Shown here piece by piece: positions 2,868 to 44,289 of a stretch of DNA of 44,289 bases. The notes beneath the pieces are model-generated. The model was not told the DNA's origin. It saw only the letters and a program-made list of their open reading frames with translations, and did no database searches. Made by a program: the position numbers and the translations under genes. The DNA comes from an uncultured Pseudomonadota bacterium. GTDB taxonomy: Bacteria; Pseudomonadota; Alphaproteobacteria; RF32; CAG-239. Every line of letters begins with the position of its first letter. Position 1 is the stretch's first letter. The stretch is from positions 1 to 44,289 of the forward strand of contig CADBSM010000054.1 in the NCBI GenBank assembly GCA_902797315.1, read 5' to 3'.

Positions 2868-3434
2868 ATGAAAAAGATATTATTGCTAGCTGGTGTTGCC
2901 AGTATTGTCACACTCAATGCAAAAGCTGGTTATTGGACGGACATGTACAATGATATGAAACCTTATATTGGGGCAGATTACATTTATAGCAACATCAAAT
3001 TTGGCAATCCTGCACGAGGTTTAAGAGATAGCTATCACTCAGGTTCGGTTAATTTGGGTGCGCGTATGTACGGTTATTGGGGGCTAGAAGCCTTTTATCA
3101 ACAATCAGGTAAACGCGAAAAGAGACACCCTGACGGCAAACATTCTGCCGAATTTTTAGCTTATGGTGCAGATTGGTACGGCTATGCACCGATTATGTGC
3201 AGCCAATTTAATGTACTGGGCTCTCTTGGTTTAGCCAATTATCGTTTTAAGTTCGGCTATCCCGACATTGCTTCAAAAACTCAAAACAGAGTAGGTTATC
3301 GTGCCGGTATCGGTATGCAATATGACTTTAACGAGCACATAGCTGCCCGCGTTATGGGACGCTACACTTATCTTGGCATGAAACGTGTCAACAACTTAAA
3401 AGAAGTCACTGTCGGTTTAAGATATATGTTTTAA
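2868..3434 (+). CDS. Small outer-membrane beta-barrel protein (OmpA-N/OmpW/opacity-type barrel)
   Basis: 188 aa. It has a signal peptide (MKKILLLAGVASIVTLNAKA), alternating aromatic/Gly-rich strands and a terminal ...GLRYMF with C-terminal Phe. SD is AGGAGA 9 nt upstream. Confidence 0.6.
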   Translation: MKKILLLAGVASIVTLNAKAGYWTDMYNDMKPYIGADYIYSNIKFGNPARGLRDSYHSGSVNLGARMYGYWGLEAFYQQSGKREKRHPDGKHSAEFLAYGADWYGYAPIMCSQFNVLGSLGLANYRFKFGYPDIASKTQNRVGYRAGIGMQYDFNEHIAARVMGRYTYLGMKRVNNLKEVTVGLRYMF

Positions 3435-3548: not shown

Positions 3549-4046
3549 ATGAAACTTTACCATTATGTGCCCAAAAAAAATACTGTTTTTCAAGACGGCA
3601 TTTTATCAATTTCAAAAAATGATACCAATCTCAAAACTTATTTCAAACGCGCCAATTCTGACAATAAAGAAGATGTTATAGCGTGGCTTGAAAAAACATT
3701 TCCAGGACGCAGTAAATCAATTTCCTGTTTAACGGAACCTATCAAATGGCACTCAAATGACATCGTTTTAAAACAGATTGTTCAAAATTCAGAACTCTTT
3801 TCTTTTGAACTTAATGATTTAATCGAAGACGGATTAGTCGAAGCAATCTGGTGTAAAGCAGGCTCTCAGGCCAATGGCATCAACGAACAATTTTTTTTAA
3901 TAGATTCTGAACAAATTGACACCTCCCCTTTACCTTGGCACAAATGTAATAGTTCCAGAGGCTTGATTTATGGCGTCATACGCCATTATTTAATTGTCTT
4001 AAAAGATGGCCTTATTCCGCCTCAATACCTTTCAAAAGAAGATTAA
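3549..4046 (+). CDS. Hypothetical protein (165 aa), no family recognised
   Basis: ORF with AAGGA SD-like sequence upstream. It is convergent with the large orphan ORF, 16 nt apart. I could not see convincing catalytic motifs. Confidence 0.45.
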   Translation: MKLYHYVPKKNTVFQDGILSISKNDTNLKTYFKRANSDNKEDVIAWLEKTFPGRSKSISCLTEPIKWHSNDIVLKQIVQNSELFSFELNDLIEDGLVEAIWCKAGSQANGINEQFFLIDSEQIDTSPLPWHKCNSSRGLIYGVIRHYLIVLKDGLIPPQYLSKED

Positions 4047-4062
4047 CTCTCAAAAAAACACT

Positions 4063-6375
4063 CTATTCTTTAGAGTATTTATTCAAAACACCTCTCATCT
4101 TTGCGATCCAAACCTCTTGCTGTTTCTGATTATTTTGTTGGAAACAAGCATCTTCTTTTTCAAAAGCTTTGTTCGAAGGGAAAGGAATATTAATTGTCTC
4201 TCCTGTTTCATATTTCATTTGAGTATAATATTCACCATTTTCACTGGCAAAAGGAATTTTATATTCGTGATTTGGACCAAACTTTATAAGCTCCCTGCCG
4301 TTAACAATTTCGACAATCGGCTCTTGCCCCGGTTTGATAGAAATTCTTTTATCATAATGCATTAAATTTCCTTGCTGATCAACAAACTCAGCCAACCCAT
4401 TTTTTTCATCAAACAGAGGATAAAGTTTGCCTTCACACAAAATTTGGCACGTTTTATTTTGTTCATCTAGAACAAGATTTAAAGTTGCATCGGAAGCAAT
4501 TTGATAGGTGGTTTTATTTTTTTGTTTCTGATTTTGGTTCTTAATTCTACCATATTCATCAAAATCGACTTTTGATTGATTTTGGTTGCAATCATTAGAA
4601 TCCGAAAAAATCGGGTTTTGGAGAGCTCCTCTGCCACTTTTTTGCATAATTTTTAAGCTTAATGGAAGCTCTGTATTTCTACATAAAATTTCAACATTTT
4701 TATTTTGAATTTGTGTCTGCAGAAGTTCTTTATCTTGAATGTTTTCAACCTCGATTTTTGTGGAGGGAGAAACTGTCATAGCTGTTGTTTGTGCATAATC
4801 CGGCTTTGCTCTTTTATCAAAAACAATTTTTTTTGCTCCTGAAAAATCTATATTTTTAGGAAACTTAACATTATATTTTAATCTGAGTTCTTCTATGTGT
4901 TGAGGCAGTTTTACCATTTGAGCTTCGGACAAATCAACATCTTCAAGTATCATTTTTTTGCATTTCATATCATTTAAATCAAGAATCTTCATCGGGGGTA
5001 TTTTGACCTCAGATAATGTGAAACTTTCACATTCTTTTGGTGCCTTAATACCGACATATTCCATATTTGCCACACATACATTGCCTCCACAATTAGAAGC
5101 ATCAAGTGCATCAAAATCAGGCGACAATGTGCAATTGTACAGCATCATGTCACCTTTTAAATGCACATCACGAAATTTTTCAGATATAACAATTGAATGA
5201 AAAGATGCATCTTTAATTTCAAGAAAATTTGATGTTGGTTCGATTTGATCTGAACGGCACAACCCTCTCACATTCAAATCTTTATTATATACTTCTAAAG
5301 ATTGATTTTTTTTAAAAATACCAAGCCGCTTTTGAGACTCTTTCTTATACTCAAATGTTGGAAAATCTTTAATTTGTTTGTTGTTTCTTTCAATCAGATA
5401 ATCATTCAATTCACTCGTGTTTTTAGGTGTATGTAGCTTAGCAAATTTTTCAAAATCTATACCTTCTTTTTTAAAATAGCCTTTTGCATCAGCAATTTGA
5501 ACAAGTTTGTCATCTACACGCAAATAGATTGCCGACAACGGATTTCTGTCTTTAAGGACAAGAGTTTCATAGTCAGCTCTATAATCTTTTTGATAAGCTG
5601 TGTGTTTTTTTAAGGCCGATGCAAAAGGTCGCTCTGCACCGGCCATATCATAAAATTTTTGACCTTTTTGTTGTTTAAACTCATAAACAAAACCATATTG
5701 CATACCATCTATTGTTTGATATCGCAAACCTTTGCCTAAATTAGAAGCTTTTGAATATTTAACAGCTTCTGACAATCTGTTGGTTGCATAAACACAATCA
5801 CGAGAACGACGACTTGAGGCTATAGCATATGGTTTATCACCTAAAAGACCTCCTCTATAAATATATTTTTGAGAAGTAAATTCTTTATCACCTTCTTGAG
5901 AAATCACAACGTTAGGCATTTTATCTGCGGCATATTTTAAAAATTCAGATAAAATCTGATGAACATTTTTTTCTTCAGGATTATTTTTTTCAATATCAAT
6001 GATATAATCTGCATATCTTTGAGAGGTTGCCTCAATTAGGTTGTCCTTCACAACAGGCATAGCGCAGCTTGTCTCAAAACCATTTTCGCTTAAAATACGA
6101 ACCATATCTTTTGTAGCAAGCATAGCATCTTTTGCGGTTTTAAAAAAAGGCGTACGAATACCGGATCCTTCAACGACAAAACAACTCAAATCATCTTTAA
6201 TATTTTCATCATAAAAAGGCAGAGCATGAATCCCCCCTCTTCTAAGCAAATTGACCACATCTTCAACTGTTTGTTTTTTTAAGTGAAGCCCTAAAGAAAC
6301 TGAAAGTGGTTGTTTGATACTATCAAAATGGTCTGAAACCACACTTTTGTATATTGTGTTATAATTACCTGCCAT
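4063..6375 (-). CDS. Large orphan protein (~770 aa), effector-like, no family recognised
   Basis: Long uninterrupted ORF. GAGGAG lies 8 nt upstream of the ATG at 6375, whereas the track's TTG at 6381 is only 2 nt from the SD. It has N/Q/K-rich low-complexity segments and a central Cys/Leu-rich irregular repeat-like region. There is no signal peptide and no TM helix. Confidence 0.6.
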   Translation of the reverse strand: MAGNYNTIYKSVVSDHFDSIKQPLSVSLGLHLKKQTVEDVVNLLRRGGIHALPFYDENIKDDLSCFVVEGSGIRTPFFKTAKDAMLATKDMVRILSENGFETSCAMPVVKDNLIEATSQRYADYIIDIEKNNPEEKNVHQILSEFLKYAADKMPNVVISQEGDKEFTSQKYIYRGGLLGDKPYAIASSRRSRDCVYATNRLSEAVKYSKASNLGKGLRYQTIDGMQYGFVYEFKQQKGQKFYDMAGAERPFASALKKHTAYQKDYRADYETLVLKDRNPLSAIYLRVDDKLVQIADAKGYFKKEGIDFEKFAKLHTPKNTSELNDYLIERNNKQIKDFPTFEYKKESQKRLGIFKKNQSLEVYNKDLNVRGLCRSDQIEPTSNFLEIKDASFHSIVISEKFRDVHLKGDMMLYNCTLSPDFDALDASNCGGNVCVANMEYVGIKAPKECESFTLSEVKIPPMKILDLNDMKCKKMILEDVDLSEAQMVKLPQHIEELRLKYNVKFPKNIDFSGAKKIVFDKRAKPDYAQTTAMTVSPSTKIEVENIQDKELLQTQIQNKNVEILCRNTELPLSLKIMQKSGRGALQNPIFSDSNDCNQNQSKVDFDEYGRIKNQNQKQKNKTTYQIASDATLNLVLDEQNKTCQILCEGKLYPLFDEKNGLAEFVDQQGNLMHYDKRISIKPGQEPIVEIVNGRELIKFGPNHEYKIPFASENGEYYTQMKYETGETINIPFPSNKAFEKEDACFQQNNQKQQEVWIAKMRGVLNKYSKE

Positions 6376-6391
6376 TGTCAAAACTCCTCTA

Positions 6392-6727: not shown

Positions 6728-8065
6728 TTAAGCGTATGGATTATCTGATTTTCGAACAGTTATTCGAATAGGCACACCGCCTAAATCAAATGTTTGACGC
6801 ATATCATTAATCAGATATCTTAAATAAGAATCCGGCAAACCTTCCGGGTTGCTTGAGAAAATATAAAAAGACGGCGGTCTTGTTTTGGCTTGGGTAATAT
6901 ATTTGAGCTTAATACGCCTCTTATTTTTTCCGAGCGGCGGTGTATTTTGCGCTTGAACATCGGAAAACCACTTATTTAACGGTGCTGTCGGAATGCGTTT
7001 ATTCCAGCGTTCATAAACTTTTAAAACAGCCCTCATCAATTTATCTAAACCTTCTTTTTTCAAAGCAGAAACCGTCACGGTTGGAATACCACTCACCTGA
7101 GTTAAAGATGTCTGAAGTCTGTCATTAAGACGCTGAATTGTTTGTTGACGCTTAGCTATATCCCACTTGTTGACAGCAATAACCAAAGCACGACCTTCAT
7201 CAATAACCTGTCTGGCAATTGTTAAATCTTGCTTATCTAAAACGGCATCAGCATCTAAAACCAAAATCACAACCTGAGCCATAAAAGCAGCATGTTTCGT
7301 CGATGCAGCAGACATTTTTTCAAGACTATCCACAATTTTGCTTTGACGTCTTAAACCTGCTGTATCAACTAAATTAATGCGGCGACCGTCAAAAGACCAT
7401 TCCGTTTTAATTGCATCACGCGTAATTCCTGCCTCAGGACCTGTCAACATTCGCTCATCATTTAAAAAAGCGTTCACAAGAGTCGACTTTCCAACATTTG
7501 GTCTGCCGACAATTGCTAAATCTATTGCTTTTTCTTTCAGGTCTTCTTCGATATCTTCTATGTCAGAATTTTCTTTATCGTATTCAACCAAAGCTTGATA
7601 TAAATCTTCTAAGCCAAGACCATGTTCTGCTGAAAACGGTATCGGTTCGCCCAAGCCAAGTTTATAACTTTCAAAAATAGAATCTTCTTGATTTTTGCCT
7701 TCACATTTATTGGCAAGCAAAATAACAGGCTTATGACTTTGCCTAACTAATGTTGCAAAAACTTCGTCATAAGGATGAAGCCCTGTTCTGGCATCAATCA
7801 TAAAAAGGCAAACATCTGCAGCATCTATCGCACGTTTTGTTTGTGCATACATTCTACTTTCAATACTGTCTTCGCCTCCTGTTTCGAAGCCTGCGGTATC
7901 AATCAACTTTAAATCTAACCCTCTAAAAGAAGCCAACGCTTCTTTGCGATCACGTGTCACTCCCGGCGTGTCATGAACAAGAGCAACCTTGCGCCCGACC
8001 AATCTATTGAGTAAGGTCGATTTTCCAACGTTTGGTCTGCCGATAATTGCAACAGTGAGAGCCAT
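6728..8065 (-). CDS. der: Ribosome-biogenesis GTPase Der (EngA)
   Basis: 445 aa with two tandem G domains (GRPNVGKST twice, DTAG twice, NKCE/NKWD) and a KH-like C-terminal domain. Confidence 0.95.
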   Translation of the reverse strand: MALTVAIIGRPNVGKSTLLNRLVGRKVALVHDTPGVTRDRKEALASFRGLDLKLIDTAGFETGGEDSIESRMYAQTKRAIDAADVCLFMIDARTGLHPYDEVFATLVRQSHKPVILLANKCEGKNQEDSIFESYKLGLGEPIPFSAEHGLGLEDLYQALVEYDKENSDIEDIEEDLKEKAIDLAIVGRPNVGKSTLVNAFLNDERMLTGPEAGITRDAIKTEWSFDGRRINLVDTAGLRRQSKIVDSLEKMSAASTKHAAFMAQVVILVLDADAVLDKQDLTIARQVIDEGRALVIAVNKWDIAKRQQTIQRLNDRLQTSLTQVSGIPTVTVSALKKEGLDKLMRAVLKVYERWNKRIPTAPLNKWFSDVQAQNTPPLGKNKRRIKLKYITQAKTRPPSFYIFSSNPEGLPDSYLRYLINDMRQTFDLGGVPIRITVRKSDNPYA

Positions 8066-10268: not shown

Positions 10269-11444
10269 TTACTCAATTATTTCACTAATCAAGAATCCCC
10301 TAATCCACCGCAAATCATCGGGCGAAAATTTATTAAAGACAACAAGAGCGTGCTTGTCTGTCACAATATTGAGGGCATATCTGTCTGTTGTCGGAGTATA
10401 GACAATATCAATACCTTTAATTTGCTCAAAGGCAATCACTTCTTCTTTGATTGAAACAAATAAAATTTTTCTAAAAACAGCTATTTTTCTGTCGCTGATA
10501 ATCAAAATATCCCTACTGATTAAGCTTAGATAAGCATACGCAATTAATGTCAATAAAACAGCATAAAACATCAAAAGGTATTTTAATGATACATAATTTA
10601 GAATCACATTTTGACTTATCACGGCATAACATAAAAGCGCGCTAAACAAACTGATAACAAGAACATTTAACGAAGCATATAAGTCAATAATCATTCTTTG
10701 AGCTTTAATTAACTTTTTGCCTAATTTCTTTTTGCAAACAAAGTTTTGTGAATGGTTTTTATTGACCATAAAGTTTGGAGGCAAATTCCAGCCTTTAACC
10801 ACTTCTGCATAAGATCGTCCCATATCATGGGCATTATGTGAAACCATACCTTTTTCTGAAATATGTATCGGCGGCAATGCAAATTTCAAAGCATAACTAC
10901 GCCACAACGCACGAACTCCCTTTTTGTTTGTACTGATATAAAGCGGAATAATCTTTTCATGATCTTTGTGATAAAGTTCAATAATAAATTTATTTTTATT
11001 GATAATGCCATATTGGCAAAATTTGAGACGCAACCGAACACCACTGTAATTAGAAAGTTTTTCAGAAAAGCTATGCGATTTTCCAAAAATAGGATGATCA
11101 TGCACAACAAAAGTTATACCATCAAACGAAATTTTTTTAGATCGAAACAATAAAAATATTGTGACAAGAAGTATACCGGCACCCAAAAACGCGAGTATAT
11201 AGCTAAAGATTTCTGTCGATATAAAAGTATGCAGAGCAAGTTTTGTTTTTGAAATTGTTTGCTCAAAATCCGTTGTCCCTGACAACTTAACAGCATTAAT
11301 CAGGTATCCGCCAACAAAAAGAAAAATCAACCCAAATAAAAATGCCAAAAATAGAATGCGATACGAAAACCTGTCTTTAGCGGTTACAGGCAGCTTATCT
11401 GTTTTGAGCCAAAAGCGATAGCTGTAGTGTTCACGAAATTTCAT
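10269..11444 (-). CDS. Polytopic membrane protein, unknown function (possible bacterial PH-like C-terminal domain)
   Basis: 391 aa with two clusters of TM helices separated by a soluble segment. It is divergent from the diguanylate cyclase gene. Confidence 0.45.
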   Translation of the reverse strand: MKFREHYSYRFWLKTDKLPVTAKDRFSYRILFLAFLFGLIFLFVGGYLINAVKLSGTTDFEQTISKTKLALHTFISTEIFSYILAFLGAGILLVTIFLLFRSKKISFDGITFVVHDHPIFGKSHSFSEKLSNYSGVRLRLKFCQYGIINKNKFIIELYHKDHEKIIPLYISTNKKGVRALWRSYALKFALPPIHISEKGMVSHNAHDMGRSYAEVVKGWNLPPNFMVNKNHSQNFVCKKKLGKKLIKAQRMIIDLYASLNVLVISLFSALLCYAVISQNVILNYVSLKYLLMFYAVLLTLIAYAYLSLISRDILIISDRKIAVFRKILFVSIKEEVIAFEQIKGIDIVYTPTTDRYALNIVTDKHALVVFNKFSPDDLRWIRGFLISEIIE

Positions 11445-14439: not shown

Positions 14440-14943
14440 ATGAATAAAAAAACTTTAATTTTACTTGTATCCTTGCTTTTAAGCGGGTGTCTCACCTACC
14501 AGCCTGCAAAAGATATAGCAAACTCTGATTCATCTGCTTGTCCACAAGTTGTGATTCGTCCGCAAGATAAAAGCATTATTCAAACGGCATCTCATCAAAG
14601 AATTTTCAAAATTGAAATTGTTGGTTATAGCGGACATTGCTATTTCGATGAGCGCATTGGAAAAAATAAAGCTGTCGTCGCACCTTCTTTTAAGATAACA
14701 CGCTTGAATGAATCCAATGTTGAAGATGTACATTTTTCTTATTATCTTGAAACAGCTGAGGGTCCTAGCCGCTTTTTGGGTAAAAAAACTTATTTTACGC
14801 AAGCTCGTATTGCCAAAGGTCAGTATGAAGCCTATCACAATGCTCAATCAGGAGAGCTTAGTATTCCCTATGCTCAAGGTAATGTTGATATATATACTGG
14901 TCTTTATGCGCAAAAAGCAGATTCAGAATATAAAAATAATTAA
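14440..14943 (+). CDS. Putative lipoprotein, unknown function
   Basis: 167 aa with a signal peptide and lipobox LLSG-C. SD is AAGGAG. Confidence 0.55.
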   Translation: MNKKTLILLVSLLLSGCLTYQPAKDIANSDSSACPQVVIRPQDKSIIQTASHQRIFKIEIVGYSGHCYFDERIGKNKAVVAPSFKITRLNESNVEDVHFSYYLETAEGPSRFLGKKTYFTQARIAKGQYEAYHNAQSGELSIPYAQGNVDIYTGLYAQKADSEYKNN

Positions 14944-29597: not shown

Positions 29598-31091
29598 TTA
29601 AAGCAAAAAAAGAACAAACAAAAACACTAAAAGAAGACCCTGAATATAAACGGATTTAATTTTAGAATAAATTGTCTCAACAGTAGAATTTTGAGCAAGC
29701 TCCACATCAAATACGCCTTTTTGATTTAGTTCAAGGGAAGAAACGACTCTTCCCATTGGATCAATTAAAGCACTGACACCATTGCCCGCACCTCGAATAA
29801 TTGTTATTCCCTCTTCAACAGCTCTCATCTGGGCGCTGACAAGGTGCTGATAGGGACCCGAACTTTGACCATACCAAGCATCGTTGCTCAACACAAACAA
29901 AAACATCGGCTTATCATTTCTATTGACCACCTCGTCAGGAAAAATAATTTCATAACAGATTAAAACACCAAATTTAAATACACCGTTCAAATCAATATTT
30001 TTAAGTTTTTCACCGCTGCTTAAATCAGATAACACTCGTGCAATCGGGCTCATCCATTCTGGCAAAAATTGTGAAAACGGCAAATACTCTCCAAAAGGCA
30101 CTAAGTGATATTTATCATAAAAAGCCACCGTGTTTCCTTGATCATTGATGACAGACACAGAATTATAAGCTTTTTGCATTTCATCATCATATCTGATTAA
30201 ACCTGTCACTAAATATCCGTTTTTAGGAACAGCTTGCTTAATTTTATTTTGAATATAGTGTGATTTTCGCGGGTCAAAAGCAGAAGCCGTTTCACTCCAA
30301 ACCACAAACTGAACATTGTTCAGCCCTTTAGTTTGGCTCATTTTAATATAAGTGTCTAAATTTTTTTCAAGCTCATTTTCATCCCATTTCATACTCTGCT
30401 TAATACTTGGTTGCACAACTCGAATTTTAATATTTGAAGGCTGTGCTTGGTATGTTGAAATACGATAAAAACCAAAAGCCACAACAAAGGCGCTGACAAC
30501 ACAGAAAACAAATAAACCTGATTTTAAAAAGCCTTTTGCACAAGCATATATGGAGCCTGCTAAAATTAAAACAATCAAAGATAAAAGATATGTTCCACCA
30601 ACAGATGCAAGCTGTATAAAACGAGCATCAAAAGCTAAAACCGTACCAAGCATATTCCACGGAAAACCCGTGAGCAAAAAGCTTCTAAGGTATTCCATCA
30701 AAACAAAAACAATAGCAAATGCACCAATTTTAAAACAGATATTTTTTCGAACGAAATAATGCCAAAACACAAAAGGCAAAATCATAAATAACCCAAAAAA
30801 AGCACCAAGTGCTAACAGTGTTATCGGATACAAAAAACCAAAACGCGCAACATCAATTAATAAGGCATTCCCAATCCAATAAAATCCGGCTGAAAAAAAA
30901 CCAACACCATAAACATATCCCAACAATGCCGCTTTTTTGTATGAATTTATTGTATCAGCAATCAGCCATATACTCACAAAACAAATAAAAACCAAAGGCA
31001 CAACAAAAAAGGGAGCAAAGCCTAAACTTGCCAAAGCACCTAAAATAAATGCTGTAGTTTTTTGATGTTTAACGGACAGGATTAGTTCCAT
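29598..31091 (-). CDS. lnt: Apolipoprotein N-acyltransferase
   Basis: 497 aa with an N-terminal polytopic domain plus a CN-hydrolase domain (VVWSETA, LICYEIIFPD). Confidence 0.9.
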   Translation of the reverse strand: MELILSVKHQKTTAFILGALASLGFAPFFVVPLVFICFVSIWLIADTINSYKKAALLGYVYGVGFFSAGFYWIGNALLIDVARFGFLYPITLLALGAFFGLFMILPFVFWHYFVRKNICFKIGAFAIVFVLMEYLRSFLLTGFPWNMLGTVLAFDARFIQLASVGGTYLLSLIVLILAGSIYACAKGFLKSGLFVFCVVSAFVVAFGFYRISTYQAQPSNIKIRVVQPSIKQSMKWDENELEKNLDTYIKMSQTKGLNNVQFVVWSETASAFDPRKSHYIQNKIKQAVPKNGYLVTGLIRYDDEMQKAYNSVSVINDQGNTVAFYDKYHLVPFGEYLPFSQFLPEWMSPIARVLSDLSSGEKLKNIDLNGVFKFGVLICYEIIFPDEVVNRNDKPMFLFVLSNDAWYGQSSGPYQHLVSAQMRAVEEGITIIRGAGNGVSALIDPMGRVVSSLELNQKGVFDVELAQNSTVETIYSKIKSVYIQGLLLVFLFVLFLL

Positions 31092-34089: not shown

Positions 34090-35034
34090 TTGAAAAAGAG
34101 AACAAAGACTGTTATAAAAGAGGCGATGAAAAGAACAAAACACAAAAACATTAATGGTTGGCTTATTATTGATAAACCCAAAGACATGGGCTCAACAGAT
34201 GTCGTCAATTTAACAAGGCGCCTTTTAGACGCCAATAAAAATGGTCATTGCGGCACATTGGATCCTTTTGCCACAGGCGTCTTGCCGATTGCTTTTGGCG
34301 AAGCCACAAAATTAATACCTTTTGTTATCAATGGCGCAAAAGAATATGAGTTTGTCCTCAAATTTGGATTTGACACCTCAACGGATGACATTGAAGGAGA
34401 GCCTGTTCACACAAATGGTTTGATCCCTGAGTTAAAACAGATTTTAGACATACTGCCTTCCTTTGTCGGGCAAATAGAGCAAACACCACCTCTTTATTCA
34501 GCAATCAAAATTAACGGACAGCGAGCTTACAAACTGGCACGTCAAGGTCAAAATATTGAAATTCCTGCGCGTAAAGTGACGATATATGATCTTCAATTTA
34601 TAGAAGCTCTTTCACAGAACCGTTTTCGTTTCAGGGTATGTTGTTCAAAGGGAACATATGTGCGCACACTTGGCAAAGACATTGCCTTAAAGCTCAATAC
34701 TTTCGGGCATTTAACCGAACTCAGAAGAACAAAATGTTCAAATTTTTTACTTCAAGATACGATTTTACTGGAAAATTTAAAAAAGATGGTGTATGAAGGA
34801 GACGAGCAAGATTTTCTTTTGCCGATAGAGACCGCACTGCGCGACATCGCGGTGTTGGCCGTTTCGGCAGAAGATGCCGTCAAATTAAGGCATGGCCAAA
34901 AACTCTCAGCAAGTTTTTATCAGATGTTAGATCATCAGGGTGAAACGTTTGCGGCTTTTGACCAAAATTGTTTGACAGCGCTTGTTCGAATTGAGAACAA
35001 AGCGATTGTTCCGATTCGTGTGTTTAACATTTAA
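34090..35034 (+). CDS. truB: tRNA pseudouridine(55) synthase
   Basis: It has the catalytic motif [23 protein letters not shown]. The TTG at 34090 has GGAGA 9 nt upstream, and the ATG at 34126 is the alternative start. Confidence 0.9.
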
Positions 35035-35053
35035 TAAAAAAAGGAAAAAAAAG

Positions 35054-35323
35054 ATGTCGATTACAAATGAACAAAAGCAAGAAATTGTTGAAAAATATGG
35101 CTTAAAACCGGGTGACACAGGTTCACCTGAAGTTCAAATTGCCATTTGGACCTATCGTATTAATGCATTGATTGAACACTTCAATGTTCACAAAAAAGAC
35201 TTGCATTCAAGATTAGGTTTGATGAAGATGGTCAGCCGCCGTCGTCACCTTTTGGATCACTTAAAAGCCAAGAGTGAAGACCGCTACCAAGACATCATCA
35301 AAAAGTTAGGTTTGCGTAAGTAA
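35054..35323 (+). CDS. rpsO: 30S ribosomal protein S15
   Basis: 89 aa, [16 protein letters not shown]...GSPEVQIA...LGLRK. AAGGA lies upstream of the ATG at 35054. Confidence 0.95.
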
Positions 35324-35344
35324 CCTTAAAAGAAAATACAAAAA

Positions 35345-35373
35345 ACTGCGGGGCATGGGGCTCCGCAGTTTTA
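35345..35373 (+). terminator. rpsO terminator / first hairpin of the pnp leader
   Basis: ACTGCGGGGC-ATGGG-GCTCCGCAGT, a GC-rich stem of about 10 bp including one G-U pair, followed by TTTT. Confidence 0.65.
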
Positions 35374-35382
35374 ACAAAAAAT

Positions 35383-35399
35383 CCTGGCATGGGGCTAGG
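35383..35399 (+). promoter_or_regulatory. Second pnp-leader hairpin with the same apical 11-mer as the first
   Basis: CCTGGC-ATGGG-GCTAGG. It shares GGCATGGGGCT (35386-35396) with 35352-35362. Confidence 0.45.
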
Positions 35400-35430
35400 T
35401 GAGGTTTATAAATAGGAAAGGTAAAAAAAC

Positions 35431-37554
35431 ATGATAAATTTTAATGTGTCCCGTCAAGAACTTGATTGGGGCGGTGAAAAACTGGTATTAGAAACAGGCA
35501 AAATTGCAAGACAGGCGACAGGCGCAGTTGTTGCCACATATGGAAAAACAGTTGTTGTGGCAACAGTATGTGCGGCCAAAGAAGCCAAACCAGATCAAGA
35601 TTTTTTTCCTTTAACCGTTAATTATCAGGAAAAATACTATGCAACCGGCAAAATTCCCGGCGGTTTTATGAAACGCGAAGGCAAACCTTCAGAGAGAGAA
35701 ATTTTAATTTCGCGTCTTATTGACAGACCGATTCGTCCTTTATTTCCTGATGCATTCAAAAATGAAGTTCAAATTATTTGCACAACACTTTCACACGATC
35801 AGAAAAATGATTCTGATGTTGTTGCCATGATAGCTGCTTCTGCAGCTTTAGCTGTTTCAGGTATTCCTTTTATGGGGCCGATTGGCGCAGTTAAAGTTGG
35901 CTACAAAGACGGTCAATACTTATTAAATCCGACACTTGCCGAACGCAAGACATCTGATTTGGATTTGACGGTTGCCGGAACTTCAGAAGGTGTTTTAATG
36001 GTTGAATCTGAAGCAAACGAGCTTCCTGAAGACGTAATGTTAGGGGCTGTTATGTTTGGTTTTGAAAGTTTTCAACCTGTCATTAAAATGATTAACGCAT
36101 TAAAGGAACAAGCCGGCAAAGAGCCTTGGGCAGAGCCTGAGTTTCCGGCAGAATACGATGCTTTATGCGCACGTGCTGAAAAAGAATTTGGCGCAGAATA
36201 CGAACGTGCTTTTAACATTATCAACAAACAAGAGCGTGTCAGCCTGTTAGGAGAGTTGGCAGAAAAATTCAAAGCCACAATTGATCCTGAAAACGAGATT
36301 GAAGTTCGTTATGCCCAAGATGCCATTGAGCATGTCATGCACAAAACCATGCGTGAAAAAGTTTTATCAACAGGTCATCGCATTGACGGCCGCGACACAA
36401 AGACAGTTCGTCCGATTGAGTGTCAAGTTGATGTTTTACCAACAACACACGGTTCAGCTTTGTTTACCCGTGGCGAGACTCAAGCTTTGGTTGTTACAAC
36501 ACTTGGCACAGATGATGATGCACAAATCGTTGATGGTTTAATGGCTGAATATCGTGAAGATTTCATGCTTTACTACAACTTCCCGCCATTTTCTGTCGGC
36601 GAGTGCGGTAGAATTGGTTCTCCAGGTCGTCGAGAAATCGGTCACGGCAAATTAGCATGGCGTGCCATTCACCCAATGATGCCAACCGACAAAGAAAAGT
36701 TTCCTTATTCTATCCGCGTTGTTTCAGACATCATGGAATCAAACGGCTCATCATCAATGGCAACAGTTTGCGGCACAACTTTATCATTGCAAGCAGCCGG
36801 CGTGCCTATGAAAAAGCCTGTTGCAGGCATTGCCATGGGTTTGATTAAGGAAAATGACGGCAGAGTTGCCATTTTAACAGACATTTTAGGCGATGAAGAT
36901 CACTTAGGTGATATGGATTTCAAGGTTGCCGGCACAAAAGACGGTGTCACAGCCTTGCAGATGGATATTAAAATTACATCTATCACCAAAGAGATTATGA
37001 AAACAGCTTTAGCTCAAGCTCATGAAGGGCGTATTCACATTTTAGGCGAAATGGCAAAAGCTATTTCTGAACCGCGTGAAAAAGTTTCTGAGTTTGCACC
37101 GCGTATTATCACCTTAAAGATTCCTGTTGACAAGATTCGTGAGGTTATCGGCACGGGCGGAAAAGTCATTCGTGAGATTATTGAAAAAACCAACACGAAG
37201 ATTGACATTACAGATGATGGCATGGTTAAAATTGCCTCTGTCAACACAAAAGACGGCGAAGCAGCTCTTGAACTGATCAACGCCATTGTTGCTGAGCCTG
37301 AAGAAGGCGTGATTTACAAAGGTGTGATTACAAAGATTATGGACTTTGGTGCTTTTGTTCGCTTTGTCGGCTCTACAGAAGGTTTAGTTCATATTTCTGA
37401 AGTTAAAAACGAGCGAATCGCTTCTGTTTCAGACTTTTACAAAGAGGGCGATTCGATTTGGGTCAAATGCATTGGCATGGACAACCGCGGCAAGTGGAAA
37501 TTGTCTGCCAAGCGCGTTAACCAAGAAACAGGCGAAGAGATTGTTCAGCAATAA
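35431..37554 (+). CDS. pnp: Polyribonucleotide nucleotidyltransferase (PNPase)
   Basis: 707 aa with two RNase PH domains followed by KH and S1 domains (GAFVRF...GLVHISE). Confidence 0.97.
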
Positions 37555-37581
37555 TTTGAACTGTTTTAAGCTTTTACAAAA

Positions 37582-37610
37582 AACACCGCTTTCATGTGGT
37601 GTTTTTTTTA
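37582..37610 (+). terminator. Probable pnp terminator
   Basis: AACACC-N10-GGTGTT followed by T8. The stem is short, so confidence is moderate. Confidence 0.55.
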
Positions 37611-37674
37611 TGTTTAAAAACATTGTCACCACTTTAAGCCGTGTGATACGGGCGTCAATCTACAACCCGCCGCT

Positions 37675-37721
37675 CTTTGCAAAGCACATCCTTTCAAGAA
37701 GGGGGCTCATCTTTGCAAAGC
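37675..37721. repeat. Two copies of the palindrome-containing 11-mer CTTTGCAAAGC, 36 bp apart, at the left edge of the insert
   Basis: The copies are at 37675-37685 and 37711-37721. The core CTTTGCAAAG is self-complementary. Confidence 0.8.
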
Positions 37722-37744
37722 GCCTTTATTTGATGAAGTTGAAT

Positions 37745-37777
37745 AAACAAAAAAGCAGCTCCCTAAAGGGGGCTGCT
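37745..37777 (-). terminator. Terminator of the island operon
   Basis: A 10-bp stem AGCAGCTCCC / GGGGGCTGCT with loop TAAA. On the minus strand it is followed by TTTTTTGTTT, and it lies 27 nt past the barrel-gene stop. Confidence 0.65.
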
Positions 37778-37803
37778 TTCTATTTTGTTTCAGGAAAGAA
37801 ATC

Positions 37804-38559
37804 TTAACGAACCTTCCGGGCAATACCAAACTGGATACCCAGAGTGGCCTTGATCTGCCATTCGCGTTCCGTGTGGTTCAGGTGAACCGTCGGAATGTTC
37901 TCAGCGGTTGCGCGAAGAACAAGGCGCATGGACTTCATGCTCGGACGGAAAGAGTATTCTAACCCACCGCCAAAGGTGAGACCGCTTCCGGTGTAATACG
38001 CGTTGTAGATCTCGACCTGGCTCTCGGTTTCGACCTCGACAATCTTGCGATTGTCTTTTCCAAACAGGTAACCGGCAGAACCTACAACGTTGATGCGGCT
38101 GTTAACCCAGCGATTTTCCCAGATCATCACCTTGCCATTAAAGGTGGTGTAATAACTCAGGTACTTTTGGTCTGGGTTATTACTCTCCTTATCGTATTCA
38201 CGCATCAGAGCGCCTAAATTCAGCTCAGCGCTGAAGATGCGGACGGCGTGTCCATTGCTGGACCACAGAGCGCCGCCTTCGTAACCGAAGGTTACGCCCG
38301 CGGTGGGGCTCAGCTGCTTTCCGAAGAAAGCTGCGCCGCCGTTGATGCCGGCATAGAAGCCGTCGATCTTAACAGACCGAAGCTCGCCGGTAGAGAGCTG
38401 CCACTCCTCATGACGAGGAGCCTTATTGAGCTTCTGCTTCGTGGCCTCAGAGAGGTCCTGGAGACCGGCTTCGGTCAGGACCATATCAAAGGTCTGAGCG
38501 TTGGCGTTGAACATGGCTGCGATGATGGCGATGGTGACGATGATGATATTCTTTTTCAT
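37804..38559 (-). CDS. Small outer-membrane beta-barrel protein (island gene 2)
   Basis: 251 aa with signal peptide MKKNIIIVTIAIIAAMFNANA-Q and alternating Gly/aromatic strands (GVTFGYEGG, GSAGYLFG, GLTFGGGLEYSF, ATLGIQFG). It is GC-rich with no SD. Confidence 0.65.
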   Translation of the reverse strand: MKKNIIIVTIAIIAAMFNANAQTFDMVLTEAGLQDLSEATKQKLNKAPRHEEWQLSTGELRSVKIDGFYAGINGGAAFFGKQLSPTAGVTFGYEGGALWSSNGHAVRIFSAELNLGALMREYDKESNNPDQKYLSYYTTFNGKVMIWENRWVNSRINVVGSAGYLFGKDNRKIVEVETESQVEIYNAYYTGSGLTFGGGLEYSFRPSMKSMRLVLRATAENIPTVHLNHTEREWQIKATLGIQFGIARKVR

Positions 38560-38659
38560 GATTAGTCTTTTTTTGTGAGGGTTGAGCAGGATAATATTAG
38601 GCTCTTCCCTCTGATTATTAAATAAAATTGAGATAGGTTCAAAAACAATATAATATGAA

Positions 38660-38700
38660 CCTTTCGGCTGAAGGGTTTTTCAAGCCGAAAGGCTTGAAAA
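38660..38700 (-). promoter_or_regulatory. Mutually exclusive hairpins between the two island genes
   Basis: TTTTCAAGCC-GAAA-GGCTTGAAAA (38677-38700) shares 38684-38692 with an alternative pairing CCTTTCGGC (38660-38668) / GCCGAAAGG (38684-38692). Confidence 0.45.
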
Positions 38701-39894
38701 CTATTTCAGCGTCAGAACGACTTGACCGTTATAAGAAACGATCATATTCTCACCCTCGAAAGAGCAAGAATAACCGCTGACCACGGTGGAGAAATTGCCG
38801 TTCCGCCAATTCCAGTTTTCGAGGCTGGATTTGCGGATGGAACGGACACAAGTGTTTCCTTCGAAATACTTGATACCGTCTTCGGCATCCTGGGCGATGC
38901 AAGGCTTCCACGTTCCGTCCTGCAGGTAGTAGGCGCTGTTGCAGGATGAAAAATCACCTTCCCAAACATCACCATTTGCTACCATCTCGGCGGTCGGCTC
39001 TGCATTCATGGGAACAATCACCGTAATGGCGCTGTTCTCCTTGAAGAATACAAAAGCCTTGTGGGCCTCACGCTCACCTTTGCCATCAACGAGCTTGCCA
39101 TTTTCTGCCATCGCGGGGACGGCGGAAACAGCAAATCCCTTGAACGCGGGCTGGGCGGGCTTGGGCTGGACGGGGGCAATAGGAGCGATTTCCATCGTAC
39201 GGGTGTACGAAGTGGAAAGCTCAAACACCTCATCCTCAGCGTCTGCCTTCACAATTACCCCTTCGTAAACGACAGTCACGTCGTTCACCTCGGCGGTCTC
39301 GGAAGACAGAGCCTCGTTCTTGACGCTTTCAATAGACTTTACCTTGATGTCCTTGAACTCAGCGTTCAGGAGCTTCAGAGTGTCTGCCTTGGCGCTCTCA
39401 ACGAGAGTGCTTAAGTCAAGAACGTTGCCGTCCTTGAGGTCAGTGGTGTAGACGTCCTTAACGGAACGCTTGACCACATCACCTTCCTTCACCTCATTGG
39501 CATCATTAGCCTTTTTGGCGAAATTGAAGGTGGTTGCCTCAAGAGCCTCGCGGCTGTCAACTTTAACATTGACAGCATTGGCAAGGTTGGCTGCCAAAGT
39601 CAGGCGAACCACATTCGTGGTACGATTGACCTCTTCACCGTTTTTGATGGTGACGGTGGTGATGGTGTTATTCTGGTCAACAGTGTTGACCTCAACATCC
39701 TTCACCTCAAATTCCCCAACGTAAGAAACGGTGGCTTTGGTTTCAAGCACATCTTCAGATGCGGGCTGGGCGGGAGCGGACTTCTGATAAGTCTGAGCTT
39801 CCATTCCCCACATGCTGTCATCTTTGGTGCAGGAAACAAACATAGCGACGAGGCCAACCATCGCGATAACAAGGGCCGTAGTGTTCTTTTTCAT
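38701..39894 (-). CDS. Lipoprotein of unknown function with a Bacteroidota-style export signal (island gene 1)
   Basis: 397 aa. Signal peptide and lipobox are MKKNTTALVIAMVGLVAMFVS-C, followed by T-K-D-D. It continues with a beta-rich Val/Thr/Asn/Glu region, a Pro-rich linker (APIAPVQPKPAQPA) and a C-terminal domain with 4 Cys. The leader is A-rich with no SD. Confidence 0.65.
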   Translation of the reverse strand: MKKNTTALVIAMVGLVAMFVSCTKDDSMWGMEAQTYQKSAPAQPASEDVLETKATVSYVGEFEVKDVEVNTVDQNNTITTVTIKNGEEVNRTTNVVRLTLAANLANAVNVKVDSREALEATTFNFAKKANDANEVKEGDVVKRSVKDVYTTDLKDGNVLDLSTLVESAKADTLKLLNAEFKDIKVKSIESVKNEALSSETAEVNDVTVVYEGVIVKADAEDEVFELSTSYTRTMEIAPIAPVQPKPAQPAFKGFAVSAVPAMAENGKLVDGKGEREAHKAFVFFKENSAITVIVPMNAEPTAEMVANGDVWEGDFSSCNSAYYLQDGTWKPCIAQDAEDGIKYFEGNTCVRSIRKSSLENWNWRNGNFSTVVSGYSCSFEGENMIVSYNGQVVLTLK

Positions 39895-40089
39895 ATTTGA
39901 TTTATTTTTTGATTATCGATTTATTTAATTATCAAAGAACTCATGAAAAATCTTTCCTGACTTTTAATGATTACTATGATAATAGACAACACTTATATTT
40001 TTACATTCTCAATCTAACACATTTTTCAACAAAAAACAAGTGAAAAAAACACAAAAAATTATTTTTTTGTACAAAAAGTCAAAACAAGC

Positions 40090-43506: not shown

Positions 43507-44289
43507 TTACTCCTGATTTGCACAATACAGCTCCTGGCCGCTCATAACACAGTGACTGCAATTTGCATCAATGCTTCCTCGATAATATACCACATTAATA
43601 TCATTGACGCACTCATTGTTCCAGTTATCAATTTTATCTTTGTTCCAATTTAAGGCAACGACACACTCATCTTTAGAATAATGGTAAATTCCTCCCATTG
43701 GAATAGTCGTACAAACGTCATTATAGGCACCAAGTTTTGTTTTACAAGATGAAGTTGTACGACAGGAGAAGCCTGAACAGCTTTGAATTGTGTTGCCTAA
43801 AACCACAGCTAAGCTGCTTAAAGATTCATATCTTGACCGTGTGCAAACAGCCTCATAACAAGCGCCTGTGTTTGACCCGGTCGGATTTCCGACCCGTTTA
43901 CAAGATTCTCCCGCCTGAAGAATGTTTGAATTGGCTAACTTGCAGGCGTTTGCATTTTTATAATATGTTCCGCCGTTAGGACACTTCGGATCTATAACAG
44001 GGTCAGATGATTTAAGACAACAAGGCTTGCTTGCTGAGCCGTCCGAATTAGATACGTTATACAGAACACCCTCAATACACCTATCTCCTCTAAAAGGCGA
44101 AACAAACTCTGAACCGCACATTGCAAACAAACCGCCAGAATCAGCACATGCTATACATGTTCCGTTTTCTTGCGGGTCTCTTATCAAACCACACTGCAAA
44201 TCTTCGCACGATTTTGCAACTTTTTGAGAACATTTTGCATCGACAGAAACACACTTATAAAAAGCATCTTCTACACATTCTGAAGCTTC
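43507..44289 (-). CDS. Cysteine-rich protein, unknown function; 5' end lies beyond the window edge
   Basis: The frame stays open from 44199 to 44289 (EASECVEDAFYKCVSVDAKCSQKVAKSCED precedes the track's TTG start). I count 25 Cys in the 260 visible residues. It is Gly/Ser/Asn-rich with no TM segment. Confidence 0.55.
   Translation of the reverse strand, partial: EASECVEDAFYKCVSVDAKCSQKVAKSCEDLQCGLIRDPQENGTCIACADSGGLFAMCGSEFVSPFRGDRCIEGVLYNVSNSDGSASKPCCLKSSDPVIDPKCPNGGTYYKNANACKLANSNILQAGESCKRVGNPTGSNTGACYEAVCTRSRYESLSSLAVVLGNTIQSCSGFSCRTTSSCKTKLGAYNDVCTTIPMGGIYHYSKDECVVALNWNKDKIDNWNNECVNDINVVYYRGSIDANCSHCVMSGQELYCANQE

Follow-up and report, generated by a model that had tools for sequence, protein, structure and literature searches.

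How does an AT-rich bacterial genome come to hold two adjacent genes that depart from their neighbours in both base composition and codon choice? This question is raised by a 44,289-nucleotide stretch (the window) that takes up the whole of the metagenomic contig CADBSM010000054.1, where a GC-rich island with genes for a predicted lipoprotein and a predicted outer-membrane β-barrel lies between pnp and mlaC. A sequence-only reading of this DNA had offered two explanations, namely recent horizontal acquisition, with Bacteroidota-like donor signals, or a chimeric assembly. We consider it likely that this is a real cassette from the host's own clade, which an AT-rich lineage gained recently from a relative richer in GC and which is still unameliorated. 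The direction and recency of that transfer, and a donor GC content of about 50% or more, are the most likely course of events, as inferred from composition and comparison. The horizontal event itself is ordinary, and what is undescribed is the family to which the genes belong, together with its leader element and its design without Shine-Dalgarno (SD) sequences in Alphaproteobacteria.

The island is a self-contained two-gene outer-membrane cassette with its own promoter, leader and terminator. It extends from about 37610 to about 40074 (about 2.47 kb) and leaves 15 nt between its end and the mlaC stop codon. The two open reading frames (ORFs) reported earlier are present, both on the minus strand, but the unit reaches beyond its GC-rich part, which had been taken as its extent, to about 40074: the conserved region upstream of the lipoprotein gene spans 40074 to 39895, so the AT-rich spacer beside mlaC belongs to the cassette. 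Its features, with GC3 standing for the G+C fraction at third codon positions, are as follows.

37578-37609, plus strand: intrinsic terminator of pnp, a hairpin followed by a T-run, forming the pnp-side edge of the island
37610-37753, no strand assigned: non-coding tail, GC-richer than native spacers, with two perfect copies of TCTTTGCAAAGC
37754-37777, minus strand: cassette terminator hairpin downstream of the barrel gene, a bidirectional inverted repeat with a 12-pair stem
37804-38559, minus strand: predicted outer-membrane β-barrel gene, 251 amino acids, GC3 0.671, classed by an AlphaFold2 (AF2) model and Foldseek
38560-38700, minus strand: intergene spacer with the barrel-gene leader, a hairpin and a recombination breakpoint
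38701-39894, minus strand: predicted lipoprotein gene, 397 amino acids, GC3 0.616, lipobox FVSC with Cys22, then T-K-D-D
39895-40074, minus strand: promoter and 5' leader, AT-rich and SD-less, with elements conserved in order among family loci

The compositional anomaly is sharp by every measure applied. The GC content of 37615-39960 is 0.493 against 0.365 in the remainder of the window, and the island is the only stretch near 0.50 in a 1-kb scan; its tetranucleotide distance to the rest of the window lies 10.4 standard deviations above that of 75 other 2.35-kb windows. The GC3 of both island genes compares with 0.22-0.37 in the other 34 ORFs of at least 120 amino acids, and the frequency of A at third positions is 0.09-0.11 compared with 0.24 in the lowest native gene. 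Relative synonymous codon usage (RSCU) in the island has a correlation of -0.13 with that of native genes. The island prefers AAG for lysine (76% vs 18% in native genes), CAG for glutamine (89% vs 22%) and ATC for isoleucine (74% vs 17%), and it avoids ACA for threonine (0% vs 55%), TTA and TTG for leucine (10% vs 59%) and AGA for arginine (0% vs 30%). The discordant composition and the flip in synonymous codons described in the sequence-only reading are therefore both real, and its six hand-counted 60-nt GC lines are all exactly right. GC content, GC3, codons and oligonucleotide signature all lie outside the range of the host, which is the compositional pattern associated with horizontal acquisition.

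An alternative would be that the locus is a long-term resident whose odd codons and GC3 are held in place by selection, be it for high expression, for SD-less initiation or for properties of the mRNA. Highly expressed native genes, however, do not share the dialect: ACA reaches 63% of threonine codons in pnp, pgk, gap, tkt, ssb and rpsO, and highly expressed genes use AAA and TTA at frequencies of 0.73 and 0.38. An internal control is provided by a native barrel gene of the OMP_b-brl/Opacity family at 2868-3434, which has an AGGAG SD, a GC3 of 0.37 and an AAG fraction of 0.25. Being native in both codons and SD, it indicates that outer-membrane barrels in this genome need neither the island dialect nor an SD-less start. 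The codons which the island avoids (ACA, TCA, TTA and AAA) are the ones favoured by native genes, including the highly expressed ones and the native barrel. Because neither of these groups carries it, the island dialect is not a host expression bias; it is distinct from that bias and not an exaggerated form of it. The non-coding tail of the island, which is GC-richer too (0.43), is likewise difficult to reconcile with selection on codons in a long-resident locus.

Comparison with other loci shows what the pair looks like when it resides elsewhere. A lipoprotein gene (226-801 amino acids) followed by a barrel gene (220-267 amino acids) occurs in loci L002, L004-L007 and L088-L092, and nine genomic contexts were read. 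The pair stands directly after fabD-fabG in L004-L007 and L088-L090, between peptidase and hydrogenase genes near nusB, def, hfq and hflX in L091, and near dksA, rng and trcR in L092; L001 and L002/L003 are short contigs carrying the pair only. Every homolog context read is a gut-type alphaproteobacterial housekeeping contig, and the cassette family thus appears, as far as these contexts go, to be confined to a clade of uncultured gut and rumen Alphaproteobacteria. The GC3 of the pair (lipoprotein gene / barrel gene) and of its native neighbours is as follows.

Window: pair 0.62 / 0.67; native genes 0.22-0.37
L088: pair 0.54 / 0.58; native genes 0.29-0.39, with one gene at 0.49
L004: pair 0.55 / 0.54; native genes 0.385-0.535
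L089: pair 0.46 / 0.54; native genes mostly 0.41-0.50, full range 0.19-0.55
L091: pair 0.51 / 0.48; native genes 0.38-0.525
L092: pair 0.32 / 0.38; native genes 0.20-0.385

The L092 locus is the most telling, having a GC content of 0.353, as AT-rich as the host of the window, and a pair at native composition. Since that pair sits in the native range, the family does not need a high GC3 and resident copies ameliorate, which speaks against selection-maintained residence in the window. Translational selection as the sole cause of the anomaly was considered and is ruled out by this ameliorated copy together with the native highly expressed and barrel genes. A hint of a GC-rich source is that the known relatives of the window allele, which forms a lineage with L001, L093, L094 and, at 46-49% amino acid identity, L002/L003, are all GC-rich (0.51 in L001, 0.50 in L093, 0.53-0.55 in L002/L003), and the intergene spacer of L002 is GC-rich as well.

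Evidence that the locus is exchanged comes from near-identical copies on short contigs of three other samples (L001, L093 and L094; ERR14224292, ERR14224296 and ERR14224300). Relative to these, the lipoprotein gene of the window is 97-100% identical and the barrel gene mostly 75-83%, with identity switching from 0.93-1.00 to 0.75-0.83 in the spacer near 38600 and climbing back to about 0.9 in the terminator and where the barrel gene ends (3'). The number of synonymous substitutions per synonymous site (dS) is 0.05 in the lipoprotein gene and 0.68 in the barrel gene, a 13-fold jump, while the ratio of non-synonymous to synonymous rates (dN/dS) is about 0.2 in both. Such a jump at equal dN/dS points to recombination and not to faster protein evolution, and we conclude that two histories have been joined by recombination with a breakpoint in the intergene spacer. 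The same contrast is seen between whole loci: fabG and fabD of L004 and L089 differ by a dS of 0.28-0.40, whereas the adjacent barrel genes are saturated (dS above 2.8) at 68% amino acid identity, and a comparison of L004 with L088 gives the same picture. A saturated barrel beside low-dS fabD and fabG implies that the locus is habitually exchanged within the clade. Its history is thus discordant with that of its neighbours in pairwise dS comparisons, which means that the locus has been replaced and not simply retained. Taken together, composition, the ameliorated L092 copy and the dS discordance support the horizontal acquisition proposed earlier.

Several observations nevertheless weigh against a recent gain from a GC-richer relative. 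The pair keeps a milder form of the dialect in every host (AAG, GAG, CAG, TTC, TAC and CTC/CTG raised, TTA/TTG avoided), and it does so even at near-native GC3 and in a fixed slot, as in L004, L089 and L091; this shared dialect may reflect selection or an unseen reservoir of GC-rich alleles, beyond recent arrival. There is no A/T-ward asymmetry among the substitutions that separate the window from near-identical copies (9:5 and 48:57). No donor genome was found, and L001-L003 and L093-L094 could come from the very species that hosts the window. The search for island genes in the four nearest relatives of the host (L008-L011) covered only the 10 kb downstream of pnp. Finally, exact-protein look-ups returned no independent contig crossing either junction, so that the linkage of island and flanks rests on one assembly; the lipoprotein and MlaC (with its SD-supported start) were off record, and RpsO was found only on contigs of 729 and 810 bp. 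The first two of these points, the fixed slot at near-host GC3, and the family-wide SD-less leaders and conserved cis element are what long residence under selection would have in its favour. Given the native controls, L092, the GC-rich tail and the dS discordance, we regard that explanation as unlikely.

The missing junction contig bears equally on the possibility that a block from a GC-richer organism in the sample was stitched into the contig during assembly. Such a chimera would account for a compositional step that is very sharp at both ends, in a contig from a metagenome bin, and for independent island contigs that are short and end near the edges (39988, 39931 and 37768). It would, however, require two mis-joins, both of them intergenic and both leaving whole genes, with a terminator of their own, on either side, and the only sequence shared by the edges is an AT-rich match of 11-12 nt, too short for a k-mer join. 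The codon usage of the left and right flanks correlates at an RSCU r of 0.91 against a null of 0.93 ± 0.02 from random native subsets, and each flank correlates with the island at about -0.12; both flanks are compositionally one genome. The cassette family, moreover, is specific to the host's own clade, and a similar GC3 excess is present in the independent assembly L088. The chimeric assembly that had been put forward as an alternative is thus very unlikely.

On the pnp side, a hairpin with a T-run lies 25-50 nt past the pnp stop codon in every close relative examined; because each relative has it, the pnp terminator is native and the island starts beyond it. In agreement with the earlier account, the GC shift falls directly after this terminator, from 0.28 in 37555-37614 to 0.43 in 37615-37803, with native intergenic DNA ranging from 0.16 to 0.40. 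Describing the island as an insert between pnp and mlaC would imply that the two genes are conserved neighbours, which they are not in L008-L011: synteny with the window is limited to truB-rpsO-pnp, and the 10 kb beyond pnp contain neither mlaC-pgk-gap nor the island genes. There was thus no conserved pnp-mlaC adjacency into which the island could have been inserted. Gene order around window positions 34090-37554 is heavily scrambled relative to these four loci, with no synteny over the 8-10 kb upstream or over the 10 kb downstream.

The absence of mobility features was borne out: no integrase or transposase domain was found among the Pfam-annotated ORFs of the window, no tRNA was found in the window, and the search for terminal direct or inverted repeats at the island gave only short AT-rich matches at chance level. 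In addition, tblastn against plasmids and phages gave no match for either island protein. By its lack of a recombinase, a tRNA target and flanking repeats, the island falls outside the definition of a classical genomic island or mobile element. The two edges do carry AT-rich look-alike strings, TTTTACAAAAAA in the pnp terminator (37572-37583) and TTGTACAAAAAAAT in the distal upstream element (40061-40074), which could be microhomology used at integration or a chance resemblance in AT-rich DNA; the right-hand string is part of the conserved upstream element of the family.

The host is, on sequence grounds, an alphaproteobacterium. Its PNPase shares 76-81% identity with the enzymes of four uncultured alphaproteobacterial metagenome-assembled genomes (MAGs) and about 60-65% with the ones from cultured Alphaproteobacteria, and the window has the housekeeping content of a diderm (Der, BamB, Lnt, PhoH, MiaB, TruB, RpsO, PNPase and MlaC) along with phosphoglycerate kinase, GAPDH, transketolase, SSB and AcrAB. 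One of the relatives, L011 (JAISVX010000001.1), is titled 'Lactobacillaceae bacterium' although its PNPase is 76% identical to that of the window and its truB-rpsO-pnp is syntenic with it; judged by these genes, it appears that either the MAG is mislabelled or its bin is contaminated. Five ORFs of native composition have no Pfam match at E-values up to 1e-4 (4063-6381, 10269-11444, 3549-4046, 14440-14943 and 43507-44199), one of which encodes 772 amino acids.

What, then, identifies the cassette as a unit? A non-coding region is conserved upstream of every family lipoprotein gene, even though the proteins are only about 30% identical. In the window, L004, L006 and L088-L092 its elements follow the same order: a distal TTGACAAAAAAAT-like element, a -35-like CTTGT, an extended -10-like TGnTAGATT, GAAAAATAAGGWTTWTGT, GGAAAATTGAAAAGATTTTTCAT and an A-rich run to the ATG. 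The window versions are TTGTACAAAAAAAT for the distal element, CACTTGTT at 40035-40042, TGTGTTAGATT at 40011-40021 and, for the core cis motif of the leader, AAAAGTCAGGAAAGATTTTTCAT at 39943-39965. The core motif GRAAAGATTTTTCA occurs once in the whole window, and all 12 fetched loci with a family upstream region have exactly one copy (12/12), compared with 0 of 87 other loci. Elsewhere, the upstream region was located at these positions.

L004: about 7790-8000
L088: about 7170-7382
L089: about 7745-7953
L091: about 5300-5509
L092: about 7050-7262
L003: 1-141
L094: 1-92

The leader is conserved as sequence, with an imperfect palindrome. RNAalifold found 9 pairs and no compensatory change, hence no conserved leader RNA structure, and the Rfam search returned only chance-level matches, none of them in the leader. 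These features would suit a protein-binding site close to the promoter better than they would a riboswitch, and the leader core may be an operator for some regulator. Both island ORFs start ATGAAAAAGAA behind A-rich leaders without an SD, exactly as had been described, and an SD-like motif with a plausible start precedes about 30 of the 34 native ORFs, which agrees with the statement that nearly every flanking gene has one. The SD-less, A-rich leader is found at both genes in all contexts, most of whose neighbours have a clear SD. For the barrel gene it is CCCTCACAAAAAAAGACTAATC at 38560-38581, a motif kept in L001 and L002.

The two copies of TCTTTGCAAAGC in the tail, at 37674-37685 and 37710-37721, lie 36 nt apart, each contains the palindrome TTTGCAAA, and together they can form a 13-nt hairpin. 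Nothing resembling these repeats was found in other loci; the tail as a whole showed no gene remnant and resembled neither other loci nor the remainder of the window, and Rfam matches there were at chance level only. The extended arms of the cassette terminator span 37742-37789, and the L001 contig matches it at 31 of 31 nt before ending at 37768. A further hairpin past the lipoprotein stop codon occupies 38660-38697.

The lipoprotein brings us to the proposed donor phylum. Its N-terminus, MKKNTTALVIAMVGLVAMFVS-C22, has a lipobox (FVS-C22) followed by T-K-D-D, and with the maturation gene lnt in the same window (29598-31091) the 397-residue product has the marks of a bacterial lipoprotein as judged from its sequence. 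A Bacteroidetes lipoprotein export signal (LES) has been described as K-(D/E)2 or Q-A-(D/E)2 after Cys+1 (Lauber et al. 2016, PMC5080379). By sequence resemblance, C-T-K-D-D corresponds to this signal; we propose that the lipoprotein is lipid-anchored and, in view of the K-D-D after the cysteine, probably surface-exposed. The signal was described for Bacteroidota, however, whereas the contig of the host and each family context read are of alphaproteobacterial type. When 1.84 billion representatives were searched exhaustively with a profile, the lipoprotein family amounted to only 70 clusters at 50% identity, of 109-1,406 amino acids; a recognisable lipobox is present in 36 of the 69 members read, with the cysteine typically followed by [TSED]-K-[DE]-[DES].

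A direct recent transfer from Bacteroidota could draw on the absence of SDs, the A-rich leaders and the MKK protein starts. The dialect itself, which avoids A at third positions and is rich in AAG, CAG and ATC, is one that we take to be like that of Prevotella-like genomes. The barrel contributes a weak partial match to DUF6850 (PF21012; 21.5 bits against a cutoff of 27, profile positions 327-464 of 464), a domain on which our literature search found no papers. The K-D-D after the lipid-modified cysteine, as noted, is in line with the published K-(D/E)2 signal (PMC5080379). These traits are nevertheless no marks of a recent donor, because they are common to the whole gene family wherever it sits, including members resident in alphaproteobacterial contigs. 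None of the nine contexts read is of another kind, the family is small given the size of the database searched, and the Bacteroidota -7 motif (TAnnTTTG) is absent upstream of the lipoprotein gene in 9 of 9 contexts, which have a sigma-70-like -35/-10 arrangement instead. The Bacteroidota donor suggested earlier thus finds no support, and we judge a direct transfer from that phylum to be most improbable; a same-clade origin of the cassette remains our preferred interpretation.

The family alignment reveals a variable middle and a conserved C-terminal domain of about 165 amino acids, the latter common to all members. Pfam, NCBIfam, PHROG and PDB sequence searches gave no meaningful match for the window lipoprotein; in NCBIfam there was a sub-threshold match to BamJ over the signal-peptide region only. 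Its AF2 model has a predicted local distance difference test (pLDDT) score of 36, which makes it unusable, and it was left uninterpreted.

Relatives of the C-terminal domain (window 38701-39210) that are not lipoproteins include three proteins, P0186, P0192 and P0195. The N-terminus of P0186, a family member, is 47% identical to the tail-fibre protein Mtd of Bordetella phage BPP-1, and it has tail and tail-fibre PHROG matches and carries the family domain as its tip (E 4.5e-34). In P0192 and P0195 this C-terminal tip is joined to a Head_fiber_dimeric domain. Because it is joined to phage modules in these three proteins, the C-terminal domain is suggestive of a distal binding module. The domain was not found in annotated phage genomes or IMG/VR contigs, and no confirmed relatives of P0186 and P0192 were found among viral contigs. 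The window lipoprotein itself has no phage module.

The second gene product begins with a signal peptide, and its AF2 model (mean pLDDT 77) shows a helix at the N-terminus and about ten strands. The best Foldseek matches were Ail, the OmpA transmembrane domain, NspA, OmpW and OmpX at E-values of 4e-5 to 3e-4, with template modelling scores (TM-scores) of 0.32-0.46 and a probability of 1.00 for Ail, OmpA, NspA and OmpW. On the strength of this model, the 251-residue protein can be assigned to the outer-membrane β-barrel structural class. Its family comprises at least 102 clusters, and a metagenome scan with the barrel profile returned only three distant loci. Pfam OMP_b-brl (PF13505) gave no match to the window barrel at E-values up to 1 and was reached by 3 of 56 family members, and DUF560 matched neither the window barrel nor any of those 56.

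Putting these pieces together, a working scheme for the cassette can be proposed, each functional step of which is inferred from sequence features. Divergent alleles of the pair, and of each gene separately, are swapped by recombination as the housekeeping flanks evolve slowly, and the cassette would have entered by recombination of imported DNA, no mobility gene being needed. Transcription would start from the cassette's own promoter, and both genes would be translated from their A-rich leaders without an SD. The lipoprotein would be lipidated (the host encodes Lnt), the K-D-D may bring it to the cell surface, and there it would present its C-terminal binding domain. The barrel would insert in the outer membrane and act with the lipoprotein as its anchor, partner or conduit, the two forming one unit. 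That the genes are inherited together, that the lipoprotein varies in length and that its domain occurs on phage fibre-like proteins would all be in keeping with a surface module on which phages or the host environment exert pressure. A bolder version, in which we have little confidence, would be an arms-race module: the C-terminal domain docks on the barrel or a glycan, phages have captured or donated it as a fibre tip and drive the swapping of alleles, and the cassette combines Bacteroidota-style SD-less expression and K-(D/E)2 export logic with a family-specific operator in its leader.

An important aspect of these results is that a sharp compositional anomaly finds its explanation in a small, exchanged surface-protein cassette, which serves as a warning that such anomalies in MAGs should not be read as cross-phylum transfer or misassembly. 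As by-products, the analysis yields an undescribed two-gene outer-membrane module restricted to poorly known gut and rumen Alphaproteobacteria, a promoter and leader element peculiar to the family, starts of both genes that need no SD amid SD-rich genomes, a surface-export-like motif outside Bacteroidota, and a C-terminal domain common to phage fibre-like proteins. These provide handles for the surface biology, phage interactions and recombination of an uncultured lineage.

How does the cassette compare with known systems? With small outer-membrane barrels (Ail/OmpX, the OmpA transmembrane domain, NspA, OmpW; PF13505) the island barrel has in common an antiparallel fold and a signal peptide, but its model has about ten strands and an N-terminal helix where those have eight strands, TM-scores are low, and the gene for a barrel of its family always comes straight after that of a partner lipoprotein. 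Pairs of a surface lipoprotein and a dedicated barrel are known in Proteobacteria, namely Slam/DUF560 proteins with TbpB, LbpB or fHbp, and NilB with NilC; Slam barrels have about 480 amino acids, a DUF560 domain and an N-terminal tetratricopeptide repeat region. The island resembles these pairs in having a lipoprotein gene beside a barrel gene, a variable lipoprotein and a recombining locus. Its barrel, however, has about half the size of Slam and no DUF560, which sets it apart from that family, and by analogy alone translocation of the lipoprotein by the barrel is a possibility.

SD-poor initiation is usual in Bacteroidota. The island lipoprotein is like the LES lipoproteins of that phylum in its C-T-K-D-D (PMC5080379), and the island genes likewise have no SD. 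It differs from them in its alphaproteobacterial hosts, in the lack of a Bacteroidota promoter motif and in its partner, which is a small barrel and not a TonB-dependent transporter. Phage fibres with exchangeable C-terminal tips, such as Mtd of BPP-1, offer another parallel, since P0186, P0192 and P0195 carry the family domain as a tip, while the window protein is a lipoprotein without a phage module. Finally, Lawrence and Ochman are said to have put forward the concept of horizontally acquired, compositionally atypical islets that ameliorate later. The island resembles such islets in its departure in GC, GC3, codons and oligonucleotides and in having an ameliorated relative in L092; it differs in carrying no integrase, tRNA or flanking repeat, in a donor that appears to come from the same clade, and in a locus that is a habitual target of recombination.

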